A DNA stretch of 64,000 nucleotides, from assembly GCA_903893485.1 (NCBI GenBank), contig CAITMK010000004.1, positions 431-64,430 on the forward strand, read 5' to 3'. The position numbers and the translations under genes are program-made. Source of the DNA: Candidatus Magasanikiibacteriota bacterium (GTDB lineage Bacteria > Patescibacteriota > Patescibacteriia > Magasanikbacterales > 2-02-FULL-50-9b). Shown here in pieces: positions 41,844-44,883 of the stretch. Position 1 is the first letter of the stretch, and the number at the start of each line of letters is the position of its first letter. Under the pieces are notes generated by a model, which had not been told where the DNA came from, did not search any database, and saw only the letters and a program-made list of their open reading frames with translations.

Positions 41844-41867
41844 ACAAAAAACAGGGCTCTCGCCCTG
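41844..41867 (-). terminator. Rho-independent terminator downstream of the RT fragment.
   Basis: cagggcgagagccctg hairpin, then U6 on the minus strand. T-run also on the top strand (bidirectional). Confidence 0.65.
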
Positions 41868-41952
41868 ATTTTTGGTGGCACACCGTAGTGGAGGAAGTCA
41901 GGAAAAATTGCGTGAATGAAATGTATACGCACACAGAGGTAAAAATGCTTAA

Positions 41953-42537
41953 TTAATTTTTATCCGAAAGCAGCCAATCCAAATTCATTAGTTCCCTCTG
42001 AACTTTCAAAGTGTTCCCATGTCGCAACAATCCTCGATATGACTGTATTCGACCCTCAACACCCTGAACCAGTATCCGCCGAAACATTCGCTGTTTTGAC
42101 GCTCTACGCAATATGCGATGTTTTGGAAAATTAACCCATCCTAAAAAATCAACGCCCAAAACGATTGATTGAAGATAAATTTTATCTGGGTGAATTACCA
42201 GCCCAAGCTCCGACTGCAAAAAATTATCCATCAACCGAAGTTGTCCCTCTAGCCATGCACGGTCATGTGACATCACAACGAAATCATCGGCGTATCGAAT
42301 ATAAAACCGCGCCTTCAGTTTATGCTTCACAAACTGATCGAACACATTCATATACACGTTGGTGAATAGCTGTGATGTTAAGTTACCAAGTGGTAAACCT
42401 ACACCCGCAGATGTCTCAAAACTTTTTATAATATGTTCCAGCAGATCCATGATCCGTTCATCAGGAATATAGCACCTTAAAATCTTAATGAGCCGTGCGT
42501 GATCGATGTTTGCGAAAAACTTCCGAATATCACATTT
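41953..42537 (-). pseudogene. 5'-truncated reverse transcriptase with DGR-type motif 4.
   Basis: Minus frame reads VLKCDIRKFFANIDH (motif 3), GLPLGNLTSQLFTNVYMNVFD ([ILV]GxxxSQ is DGR-specific), IRYADDFVV (motif 5), FLGW (motif 7). No motifs 1-2 in any frame upstream. The ORF-track N-terminal 45 aa are an out-of-frame readthrough of the neighbouring GC-rich gene. Confidence 0.7.
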
Positions 42538-43177
42538 CAAAACCGGGCTGTTTCCATAAAGAGTTGCGAACGGCGAGAAACCGATAGTTGCCGTTCCAGC
42601 TGTTGCTCCACCAGAACAGGTCCAGCTTCCGCTCGTCACCGTTCCGGTAGAGGTACGGGGCACGGCGGTCGTCACCGTGACCCCAGATCGAACCCAAGCC
42701 CATGATCGCGTACTTGCGCTGTTCGTCGGGATTTTTCACGGCGTAGGCCAGGAGTTCGCGCAACGTCGCAGGACGGAAGCCATCTTTGTCCATCGCCGAA
42801 ACGACGTCCTTGGACGACATGTCCTTGCCGAAGTGGTAGAGCTTGACCTGGAGGTTCTGCTCGCCCGTCTCATGCGCCTGGTTCGGGAAGTTCTTCTCGA
42901 CGATGTCGTCGTACTTCCAGTCGAACGCGGCGGCCGTGATGGCGTCGATCAGCTTGAGCGCGTAATCGACCGAAAGCACTTCGCAGCCGTCGGGAATGGT
43001 GATCCCGCGCTCAGCCATGATCTGCTTGGCGATCTCAGTGGCCAGCTTCTTGTCCTTGAGGATGCGCAGGATGTCTTCATCGTTGCCGCCCATGTCGAGC
43101 ACGGCGTTGACGAGCACCTTCACGACCTCGAACATTTTGCCAAAGTTCTTGAGCAATTCACTTACAGGACGAGCCAT
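42530..43177 (-). CDS. Hypothetical protein (215 aa), GC-rich islet 4, occupying the position of the RT 5' half.
   Basis: GAGAGG SD. GC about 58% from about 42545 to 43270 with an abrupt drop at both edges. The + strand ORF 42677..43348 is a shadow. Confidence 0.5.
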   Translation of the reverse strand: MARPVSELLKNFGKMFEVVKVLVNAVLDMGGNDEDILRILKDKKLATEIAKQIMAERGITIPDGCEVLSVDYALKLIDAITAAAFDWKYDDIVEKNFPNQAHETGEQNLQVKLYHFGKDMSSKDVVSAMDKDGFRPATLRELLAYAVKNPDEQRKYAIMGLGSIWGHGDDRRAPYLYRNGDERKLDLFWWSNSWNGNYRFLAVRNSLWKQPGFEM

Positions 43178-43341
43178 TTTGAGCCTCTCACTTCTGTGTG
43201 GCCTACCGCTTATCCCGAGTCACCCGACCCAAGACCTACGGCTTACCAACTGCCAACCGATTTGGCTGCAGTAATTAAATTTGCTCTGTTGAGAGAAAAC
43301 CTAGTTATTGCGGCTAAATTAGGTACTGTTATTGACTATCA

Positions 43342-43370
43342 TTTATAGCACGATTTGGTGATTTTGTCAA
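43342..43370 (-). promoter_or_regulatory. Sigma70-like promoter TTGACA-17-TATAAA (minus strand).
   Basis: RC reads ttgaca aaatcaccaaatcgtgc tataaa. It lies in AT-rich DNA between tRNA-Trp and the GC-rich cassette, about 145-nt leader. Confidence 0.5.
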
Positions 43371-43414
43371 GGTGATGGCTCAAAATTTGGCTAATTAGTG
43401 AGTGAAAATCAAAA

Positions 43415-43438
43415 ACCCCACTTTCGTGGGGGTCTCGA
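43415..43438 (-). terminator. Rho-independent terminator after tRNA-Trp.
   Basis: RC reads cccccacgaaagtggggg followed by ttttt. Confidence 0.6.
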
Positions 43439-43439
43439 G

Positions 43440-43510
43440 CACGGGATGAGGGAATCGAACCCCCGCCAAAGGTTTTGGAGACCTTCGTTCTACCATTAAA
43501 CTAATCCCGC
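43440..43510 (-). tRNA. tRNA-Trp (anticodon CCA).
   Basis: RC folds as GCGGGAT-TA-GTTT/AATGGTA/GAAC-G-AAGGT/CTCCAAA/ACCTT-TGGC-GGGGG/TTCGATT/CCCTC-ATCCCGT-G. 3' CCA is not encoded. Confidence 0.85.
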
Positions 43511-43515
43511 ATACT

Positions 43516-44289
43516 TTATTTTCCTGACTTTGCTTGCAACATCGCAACGCGAAGTGTCACACTACTGTACACGATGAGCGCAATTGTTTCAATAAGATCT
43601 GCACCACCATATCCACCAACAGACAAAATGGTCCAAAGAAGCAATGGCCCCGTCATTGCTGCCATGTTGAGCCGAAATGCCTGGGCAAATCGAATCGGTT
43701 GTGCCTTTGCCATTTTATGTGCAAACACCACAAGCAAACTCCACAGCATCACTACCACCAAAGACAATGCCAGCTTCCATGCGCACATAACCACAAATAG
43801 TACCACGGTAATACCCGCTGCCAATTTCCCCTGGTATGAGCCCCACACAGCTTTAACACCGCTGCCAGTGAGTGCAAAATCTTGGTTACCGCCCCACAGC
43901 ATTTGCTGTGAATTTTGCGGAGTCACCAGCTGAATCGCGGTGCGTGAAACAGAAATACCTTGCGTCACTGCACCCAACGTGCTCGTACTGGTATCAATTT
44001 TTAACGCGAAATCCTTATCTTGAAACGCAAATGGCTGTGCAATTCCCGCAATGGTCAAATCATCGCCTTTTTTGGTTGCACTAATACCATCGGGAATTTT
44101 GTGCACGTAATATCCAACTTGGTTAAGGCCACCAGCAATTGCCGGCGCCATGGTTGCCACCACGATTGCGACCGCCAAAATATGCGTCTGAAACCAAAAA
44201 GACCATGGAGTCTTGTACTCCGGTCTCAGTAGTAGCGCAAGGGATTCAACGTCACTCGCCCATTTCCACAGCCGACGAAAGAACTCCAT
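43516..44289 (-). CDS. Hypothetical polytopic membrane protein.
   Basis: About 257 aa from the MEFFRRLWKW start, which avoids overlap with rpmG. 6-7 TM helices. Confidence 0.35.
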   Translation of the reverse strand: MEFFRRLWKWASDVESLALLLRPEYKTPWSFWFQTHILAVAIVVATMAPAIAGGLNQVGYYVHKIPDGISATKKGDDLTIAGIAQPFAFQDKDFALKIDTSTSTLGAVTQGISVSRTAIQLVTPQNSQQMLWGGNQDFALTGSGVKAVWGSYQGKLAAGITVVLFVVMCAWKLALSLVVVMLWSLLVVFAHKMAKAQPIRFAQAFRLNMAAMTGPLLLWTILSVGGYGGADLIETIALIVYSSVTLRVAMLQAKSGK

Positions 44290-44297
44290 ACCAAAAA

Positions 44298-44453
44298 TTA
44301 TTTGGTTTCTTTGTGGAGCGTGTGCTTGAGGCAGTGTTCGCAATGCTTCTTAAGCTCAAGACGGTTCTTGATCTTCTTTTTATTTTTATGAGTGTAATGC
44401 GTAACTCGCTTGCATTCGGTGCACTCGAGCTTGATGAGATTGTCTTGTGACAT
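44298..44453 (-). CDS. rpmG: 50S ribosomal protein L33.
   Basis: [51 protein letters not shown] (CxxC...CxxC). The upstream part of ORF 44298..44636 runs through a tRNA and is spurious. Confidence 0.9.
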
Positions 44454-44485
44454 ACAATAAATTATTATCCGAACAATTTTCCGAA

Positions 44486-44558
44486 AGCCAGCAGAGGGAT
44501 TCGAACCCACGACCTTCGCTTTACAAAAGCGCTGCTCTACCAACTGAGCTATGCTGGC
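44486..44558 (-). tRNA. tRNA-Thr (anticodon TGT).
   Basis: RC reads GCCAGCATAGCTCAGTTGGTAGAGCAGCGCTTTTGTAAAGCGAAGGTCGTGGGTTCGAATCCCTCTGCTGGC with loop TTTGTAA. Confidence 0.8.
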
Positions 44559-44559
44559 C

Positions 44560-44645
44560 TGGTGGGTGGAGAAGGATTCGAACCTTCGAAGGCGAAAGCC
44601 AACAGATTTACAGTCTGCCGTGTTTGACCGCTTCACTATCCACCC
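44560..44645 (-). tRNA. tRNA-Tyr (anticodon GTA), long variable arm, CCA encoded.
   Basis: RC reads GGGTGGATAGTGAAGCGGTCAAACACGGCAGACTGTAAATCTGTTGGCTTTCGCCTTCGAAGGTTCGAATCCTTCTCCACCCACCA. Confidence 0.85.
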
Positions 44646-44807
44646 GATGAATAGAACGGATATATACTATCAATTTCACGCAAATAAATCAAGAGCTGGG
44701 GAAAAAACCGCGGATTTTGATTATTTCCCTTATTTTTGAGGTTTTTGGCTTTGCTGCGCGCCAAGGTGAAAATAAAAAAACTGCAACAGAATTGCAGTTT
44801 TTTTAAC

Positions 44808-44883
44808 TGGAGCCGTTAATCGGGATTGAACCGATGACCTCGTCCTTACCAAGGACGTGCTCTACCAACTGAGCTACAACGGC
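44808..44883 (-). tRNA. tRNA-Thr (anticodon GGT), CCA encoded.
   Basis: RC reads GCCGTTGTAGCTCAGTTGGTAGAGCACGTCCTTGGTAAGGACGAGGTCATCGGTTCAATCCCGATTAACGGCTCCA. Confidence 0.85.

Follow-up and report, generated by a model that had tools for sequence, protein, structure and literature searches.

The locus analyzed here occupies the minus strand in part of a 64,000-nt stretch of bacterial DNA, which is referred to below as the window. Along this strand, a DUF1189 gene (43516-44343) is followed by tRNA-Trp (CCA; 43439-43510), the host anchor of the locus, with its terminator hairpin (43416-43431), a promoter-like TTGACA-17-TATAAA pair (43342-43370), an ORF for a protein of 215 aa (42530-43177), a reverse transcriptase (RT) frame (41953-42544) and an intrinsic terminator (41852-41867). 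The tRNA, which an earlier sequence-only reading of this DNA had already recognized beside the locus, was located with ARAGORN. Upstream of the DUF1189 gene, the region 44298-44883 holds a cluster of tRNA-Thr(GGT), tRNA-Tyr and tRNA-Thr(TGT) and a small Cys-rich ORF resembling ribosomal protein L33; of these features, tRNA-Thr(TGT) alone was confirmed, likewise upstream of DUF1189, in L005, a contig carrying an intact counterpart of the locus. Homology between the window and L005, as determined by blastn and sequence comparison, begins within the final ~21 nt of tRNA-Trp, and the terminator hairpin of the tRNA, which bounds the shared region on the left, is kept in L005. In the promoter-like pair, TTGACA lies at 43365-43370 and TATAAA at 43342-43347 with a spacing of 17 nt; as the earlier reading had noted, the pair is there, and both hexamers are kept in L005, L069 and L070, changes being confined to the spacer. 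Sequence and conservation suggest that it may be the promoter of the 215-aa gene. It was not listed by the promoter scan tool, probably because the rule for the second hexamer demands a final T, which is absent from TATAAA. The pair marks the beginning of a conserved cassette, which ends ~72 nt past the RT stop codon with a tail (41880-41952) still homologous to L005. The terminator that the earlier reading saw 3′ of the RT frame is real, consisting of a stem at 41852-41867 followed by TTTTTTGTTT. It belongs, however, to the host flank and lies outside the conserved cassette, the homology of the relatives stopping at 41880.

The RT frame, which ends at 41953, is matched by Pfam RVT_1 (positions 66-203 of 205, E 1.4e-15) and PHROG 1423, a phage RT family (E 1.4e-60). 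It includes CDIRKFF (42514-42534), LGNLTSQ (42370-42390) and YADD (42283-42294), and thus shows both signatures of the RT clade of diversity-generating retroelements (DGRs), [ILV]GxxxSQ in motif 4 and YxDD; the SQ dipeptide is a marker of this clade (PMC3521204). The nearest full-length homologs are located in verified DGR loci, the genomic context of the frame itself is that of a DGR, and the named relatives belong mostly to Patescibacteria and related candidate phyla. Membership among group II intron, retron or Abi/UG RTs is not indicated: the NCBIfam scores are far under the curated cut-offs for group II introns (81 versus 300 bits), for Drt3a (64 versus 200) and for retrons (49 versus 235). 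The assignment to a DGR-type remnant made in the sequence-only reading therefore stands.

This RT is not complete with respect to motifs 1-7. Only the C-terminal 196 residues are left, corresponding to residues 139-334 of a 334-aa DGR RT (59%), from the CDIRKFF motif through the stop codon, and the front 41% is gone. The frame (GC 0.407) is open, without a start codon or an SD of its own. The earlier reading was right about the minus-strand remnant and placed its limit at 42537; true homology runs to 42544, beyond which the listed ORF (41953-42675) extends only as an out-of-frame overlap with the 215-aa gene. Searches of the full 64 kb by tblastn, with the Avd of L005 among the queries, and by blastn detected neither avd nor an N-terminal part of the RT nor a second TR/VR-like copy, which bears out the earlier statements that the 5′ motifs are absent and that no pair of template repeat (TR) and variable repeat (VR) is visible. 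The peptide NLAAITRFSLNRANLITAAKSVGSW (~43250-43330) was suspected to be a leftover of the RT N-terminus. It was rejected, since in L005, L069 and L070, which possess avd as well as RT as far as their contigs extend, the region is conserved as the 5′ leader of the counterpart of the 215-aa gene, and since tblastn with full-length RTs gave no match there.

In an intact DGR, RT and Avd make cDNA from TR RNA, a step that is error-prone at adenines, and this cDNA replaces VR. The replacement diversifies the ligand-binding face of a protein with a C-type-lectin fold. About 25 relatives of the 215-aa protein were found in the protein collection, one of which, P0006 (82% identical), is encoded on L005, a contig of 24 kb. 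L005 has the order DUF1189, tRNA-Trp, 207-aa target gene, bAvd on the opposite strand and RT; after the tRNA, the target gene with its VR is followed by a spacer, TR, a hairpin, avd and RT. The final 140 nt of the target gene recur 475 nt downstream, and 17 of the 20 mismatches fall at adenines of the downstream copy, which is the TR/VR signature of a DGR. Such pairs were found in 14 related loci, where 78-100% of mismatches are at TR adenines (at least 90% in 11 of them), and the architecture usual among the relatives is target gene with VR, spacer, TR, avd on the minus strand and RT. The closest full-length RTs (L005, L008 and L009) all have adenine-biased TR/VR pairs and adjoin bAvd, which is also found in L069; the full target gene is present in L005 and L009 as well. 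The hairpin following TR in L005 folds at -12.5 kcal/mol (z -5.6). A different arrangement is seen in L040 (3779-5791), in which a full-length RT ORF lies ~280 nt beyond a target homolog, avd and a second repeat copy being absent from its 8.3 kb; the locus represents either an alternative architecture or a different stage of decay. Since the intact DGR of L005 lies at the same place after tRNA-Trp and is 91-96% identical to the window, an ancestral DGR adjacent to tRNA-Trp, as the earlier reading had supposed, is very likely.

What, then, is the 215-aa gene? The earlier reading correctly described it as a gene of 58% GC with an SD of its own (GC 0.576, GAGAGG upstream), and took it for an unrelated, GC-rich single-gene cassette that had been inserted into the ancestral DGR, overwriting the 5′ half of the RT gene and the TR/VR region. 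Two observations are in favor of such an insertion, a sharp local GC step (0.58-0.61 versus 0.40-0.45, with 0.453 for the whole window) and the lack of any Pfam, NCBIfam or PHROG family for the 215-aa protein. However, orthologs of the gene sit at the same place in intact DGRs and carry VR, the 3′ end of the gene is itself TR/VR sequence, and the window is ~1,276 nt shorter than L005 and contains no added sequence. Neither is the GC step a mark of insertion, because high GC is a trait of the target family: it is common to the target genes of eight loci, seven of them with an intact RT, and in eight of nine loci compared the target gene is 10-29 GC points above its own RT, the exception being the decayed L016 (7 points). 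An insertion of foreign DNA is thus extremely improbable. The 215-aa gene belongs to the DGR itself: it is the target gene, orthologous to that of L005 and in its original position, as the layout and the adenine-biased VR/TR pairs shared by the relatives show. The protein consists of a helical N-terminal part and a C-terminal domain of C-type-lectin fold, and it is the 3′ end of the gene that codes for the variable residues. A hypervariable stretch, with 48-59% identity between relatives, makes up the last ~46 residues; the rest is 88-96% identical among the closest relatives (P0002-P0009).

Target genes richer in GC than their own RT and avd were observed in L005, L009, L012, L021, L027, L039, L040 and L023 as well as in the window (42530-43177). 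In L021, for example, the values are 0.622 versus 0.336, and the richness spans the entire gene, beyond VR. A 223-aa shadow ORF (42677-43348, plus strand) is antisense to the target gene in the window; in L010 and L009, gene callers picked this ORF or its equivalent over the real gene.

Alignment of the window with L005, as an intact tRNA-Trp-adjacent DGR, gave three collinear blocks. By blastn, the target region (43460-42560) corresponds to L005 2633-3533 (91% identity), 42694-42545 corresponds to L005 3874-4023, TR plus 10 nt (89%), and 42544-41880 corresponds to L005 4825-5488 (96%), a stretch that opens with the last base of RT codon 138 and extends ~72 nt beyond the stop. The ~1,276 nt by which the window is shorter, ~1.28 kb where the earlier reading had postulated an overwriting insertion, are missing in two pieces. 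The first is one VR-to-TR repeat unit (475 nt in L005), in place of which a single VR/TR hybrid remains (42545-42694). The second is 801 nt (L005 4024-4824), comprising the rest of the TR hairpin together with avd and the first 138 RT codons. The locus is thus orthologous and syntenic to an intact DGR and has lost essential parts at mapped positions, which identifies it as a DGR remnant.

The hybrid, in which the last 150 nt of the supposed insert consist, is the sole repeat of the window, its second copy being absent from the 64 kb. Its 5′ flank is target-gene sequence. The body (42582-42694) is VR-type and has 15 private differences from the TRs of L005, L008 and L069, 11 of which coincide with invariant TR adenines (the final one being 42582); the four others are away from TR adenines and need either a lineage-specific TR or drift after the decay. 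The 3′ part (42581-42545), according to alignment with the VRs and TRs of the relatives and the hairpin fold of L005, is exactly TR-type: CGCAAC, where five of five VRs have CGCAAG, is followed by TCTTTATGG and AAACAGCCC, the latter being the 5′ arm of the hairpin downstream of TR. All adenines within these last 37 nt are unchanged. VR and TR share an exactly identical stretch of ~40 nt, and the crossover interval in the hybrid is ~42564-42581. The VR-type CGCAAG together with the GGCAC/GTGCC hairpin is present in L005, L008, L009, L069 and L070 and absent from the window, which has the TR-type CGCAAC and the TR flank in its stead. As a result of the fusion, the target protein is longer at its C-terminus by 8 residues (SLWKQPGFEM) than the 207-aa relatives, and this extra tail is predicted to be disordered.

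At the second junction (42544/42545), the 5′ arm of the TR hairpin (equivalent to L005 4023) directly abuts RT codon 138 at its last base (L005 4825). No microhomology is found there, as judged on L005, and fewer than 40 nt separate the two breakpoints. Could these junctions be products of the assembly, through collapse of VR and TR or a chimeric join at 42544/42545? The ~40 nt of exact identity between VR and TR could mislead a de Bruijn graph. However, no repeat is involved at the second junction, and no contig with the window allele carries avd or the RT 5′ end. Moreover, both junctions recur at 99.9-100% identity in five contigs (L001-L004 and L010) from different samples and assemblers, among which are ENA scaffolds, a k141 MEGAHIT-style contig and a Logan contig; misassembly is therefore very unlikely, and a chimeric join near 42540, which the earlier reading had considered, can be set aside. 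No intermediate allele, a hybrid repeat with intact avd-RT, was found among 25 target homologs and 58 metagenome loci, the close relatives being all of 207 aa.

The best explanation of these data, and a highly probable one, is that the locus is a dead DGR with an orphaned, frozen target gene, which arose by deletions with nothing inserted. The immediate ancestor is represented by the proxies L005, L008 and L069 at 86-96% identity. In that ancestor, tRNA-Trp would have been followed by the promoter, the target gene with its C-terminal VR, a spacer of ~335 nt, TR, the strong hairpin, avd on the opposite strand and RT. One lost piece begins in the conserved 3′ part of VR and ends at the equivalent position of TR; homologous or copy-choice recombination between these direct repeats most likely removed it, leaving one VR/TR hybrid. 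The other comprises 801 nt that start within the TR hairpin, include avd and RT motifs 1-2 and end at RT codon 138; it was presumably lost in a hairpin-associated illegitimate deletion. The two may have been successive events or parts of one multi-switch replication event. The outcome is an element without TR and Avd, with an RT devoid of its fingers domain and start codon, and without the IMH and hairpin on the VR side. The IMH and the hairpin adjoining VR promote efficient retrohoming and are required for it in BPP-1 (PMC3240598). Every part for retrohoming being missing or broken, the element is inactive; its target gene retains its putative promoter, SD and fold, with a frozen variable region. 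The locus is a case of ordinary gene decay, and foreign insertion is rejected.

The lack of microhomology at the second junction counts against this explanation, and with the breakpoints within 40 nt of each other, two fully independent deletions would be somewhat unexpected. An unlikely alternative is that both deletions come from one event tied to the hairpins of the element, either aberrant retrohoming or a serial template switch, in which a short patch of the TR 3′ end would have been copied between two jumps. Aberrant retrohoming, taken separately, would mean a self-inflicted loss in a single event: a mutagenised cDNA begun in the TR hairpin would have been integrated at VR and illegitimately joined within the RT gene, with loss of all the sequence between. 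The proximity of the breakpoints, the TR-type patch, whose end coincides exactly with the 5′ arm of that hairpin, and the adenine-type changes in the body of the hybrid are in line with this idea. Nevertheless, an ordinary earlier retrohoming explains the adenine changes equally well, the adenines of the final 37 nt are all unchanged, and no precedent was found in the literature searched. The possible origin of the RT part from cDNA was tested by its substitution spectrum relative to L005 and rejected: the spectrum is symmetric, with seven A>G and seven G>A changes and no adenine bias, and thus gives no support for passage through an adenine-mutagenic RT. Such self-inflicted loss is accordingly regarded as quite improbable.

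Is the target gene of this dead DGR really frozen? DGRs with remote targets exist. The locus might thus be a remote target that continues to be diversified in trans, by an intact DGR at another genomic site, an idea compatible with the description of DGRs with multiple VRs (PMC3521204) and with the coverage of the present data, 64 kb of the genome, beyond which a second DGR is possible. Against it, the VR-coded residues are identical across all copies of the 215-aa protein, from at least eight samples (a variant, P0146, differs at two positions, both outside VR), and the VR-type IMH (CGCAAG) and the downstream hairpin have been replaced by TR-type sequence. Diversification in trans is therefore very improbable, and the constancy of the variable residues in all copies indicates that VR is no longer rewritten. 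With L008 as the outgroup, the RT remnant has seven synonymous and three non-synonymous private changes and no stop codon, which suggests that it was under selection for most of its branch; the loss of the DGR parts thus looks recent. A second, independent decayed DGR was observed in L016 (3812-4892; also in L018), flanked by ruvA-like and rpsT-like genes. Its target gene keeps an intact VR end and the downstream hairpin, as in L020, and is followed after ~220 nt by an 83-aa RT remnant with the last motifs and thumb only, without avd or TR.

The cassette (41880-43395) is 72-96% identical to those of L005, L069, L070 and L009 despite unrelated flanks. It adjoins tRNA-Trp in the window and L005, a tRNA-Thr fragment in L070, an unrelated gene in L069 and, in L009, an island where a large serine recombinase and a SMODS gene are its neighbors; even the DUF1189 proteins beside it in the window and L005 are only 30% identical. 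Judging from such similar cassettes in unrelated settings, the cassette has evidently moved horizontally between genomes. Between tRNA-Trp and the DGR of L005 there is an insert of ~130 nt (2503-2654), holding a minus-strand piece resembling a tRNA 3′ end and, after it, a duplicated 21-nt 3′ end of tRNA-Trp, which looks like an att-type scar of integration at this tRNA. A phage origin was also considered and is disfavored by the lack of relatives of the target or the cassette in IMG/VR.

How does this locus compare with known systems? It resembles the DGRs of CPR/Patescibacteria (target-TR-avd-RT, with targets of C-type-lectin fold) in the RT signature LGNLTSQ and in a C-type-lectin-fold target with a C-terminal VR; unlike them, it lacks TR and avd, has 59% of an RT and a single VR/TR hybrid, and cannot retrohome. 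The prototype, the DGR of Bordetella phage BPP-1 (mtd-avd-TR-brt), follows the same logic, in which the gene for a C-type-lectin-fold protein ends in an adenine-mutagenised VR, and the intact relatives share with it conserved IMH-like differences between the 3′ ends of VR and TR and a hairpin after VR (PMC3240598). They differ from it in gene order, in the orientation of avd and in the strong terminator-like hairpin after TR; the cassette, unlike BPP-1, is chromosomal and tRNA-adjacent with no relatives in IMG/VR, and its copy in the window is decayed. The DiGReF survey reports truncated or inactivated, non-functional DGR RTs, due to transposon insertion, nonsense mutation or frameshift (PMC3521204). 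In contrast to these cases, the window has a mapped double deletion that fuses the VR of the target to the end of TR, and this in turn to RT codon 138. The literature searched contained no description of a VR × TR deletion scar or of a VR/TR hybrid. Homologous recombination between VR and TR is not the normal route of transfer; nevertheless, a hybrid scar is an expected outcome for direct repeats. Thus, the locus is a fresh instance of an already-known kind of decay: complete RT, TR/VR pair, avd and the IMH and hairpin on the VR side, four of the marks of a functional DGR, are all lacking, and those of a remnant are present.

The understanding of the DGR mechanism is unchanged by this locus, and its main value lies in a correction: where a GC-rich gene is found beside a truncated DGR RT, the first possibility to test is that it is the target of that DGR. 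If both deletions did stem from a single event tied to the hairpins, DGRs of this type would be capable of self-destruction by way of their VR/TR repeats and hairpins, and the near-identical cassettes at one tRNA-Trp site in hosts as different as those of the window and L005 would represent a mobile, integrase-less DGR homing to tRNA 3′ ends. The locus otherwise provides a cleanly mapped case of DGR death, in which recombination between the VR and TR repeats and loss of avd and the RT 5′ part have left a frozen variable protein still equipped for expression. Such scars could serve to count DGR losses in streamlined genomes and could help to explain 'orphan' C-type-lectin-fold genes.
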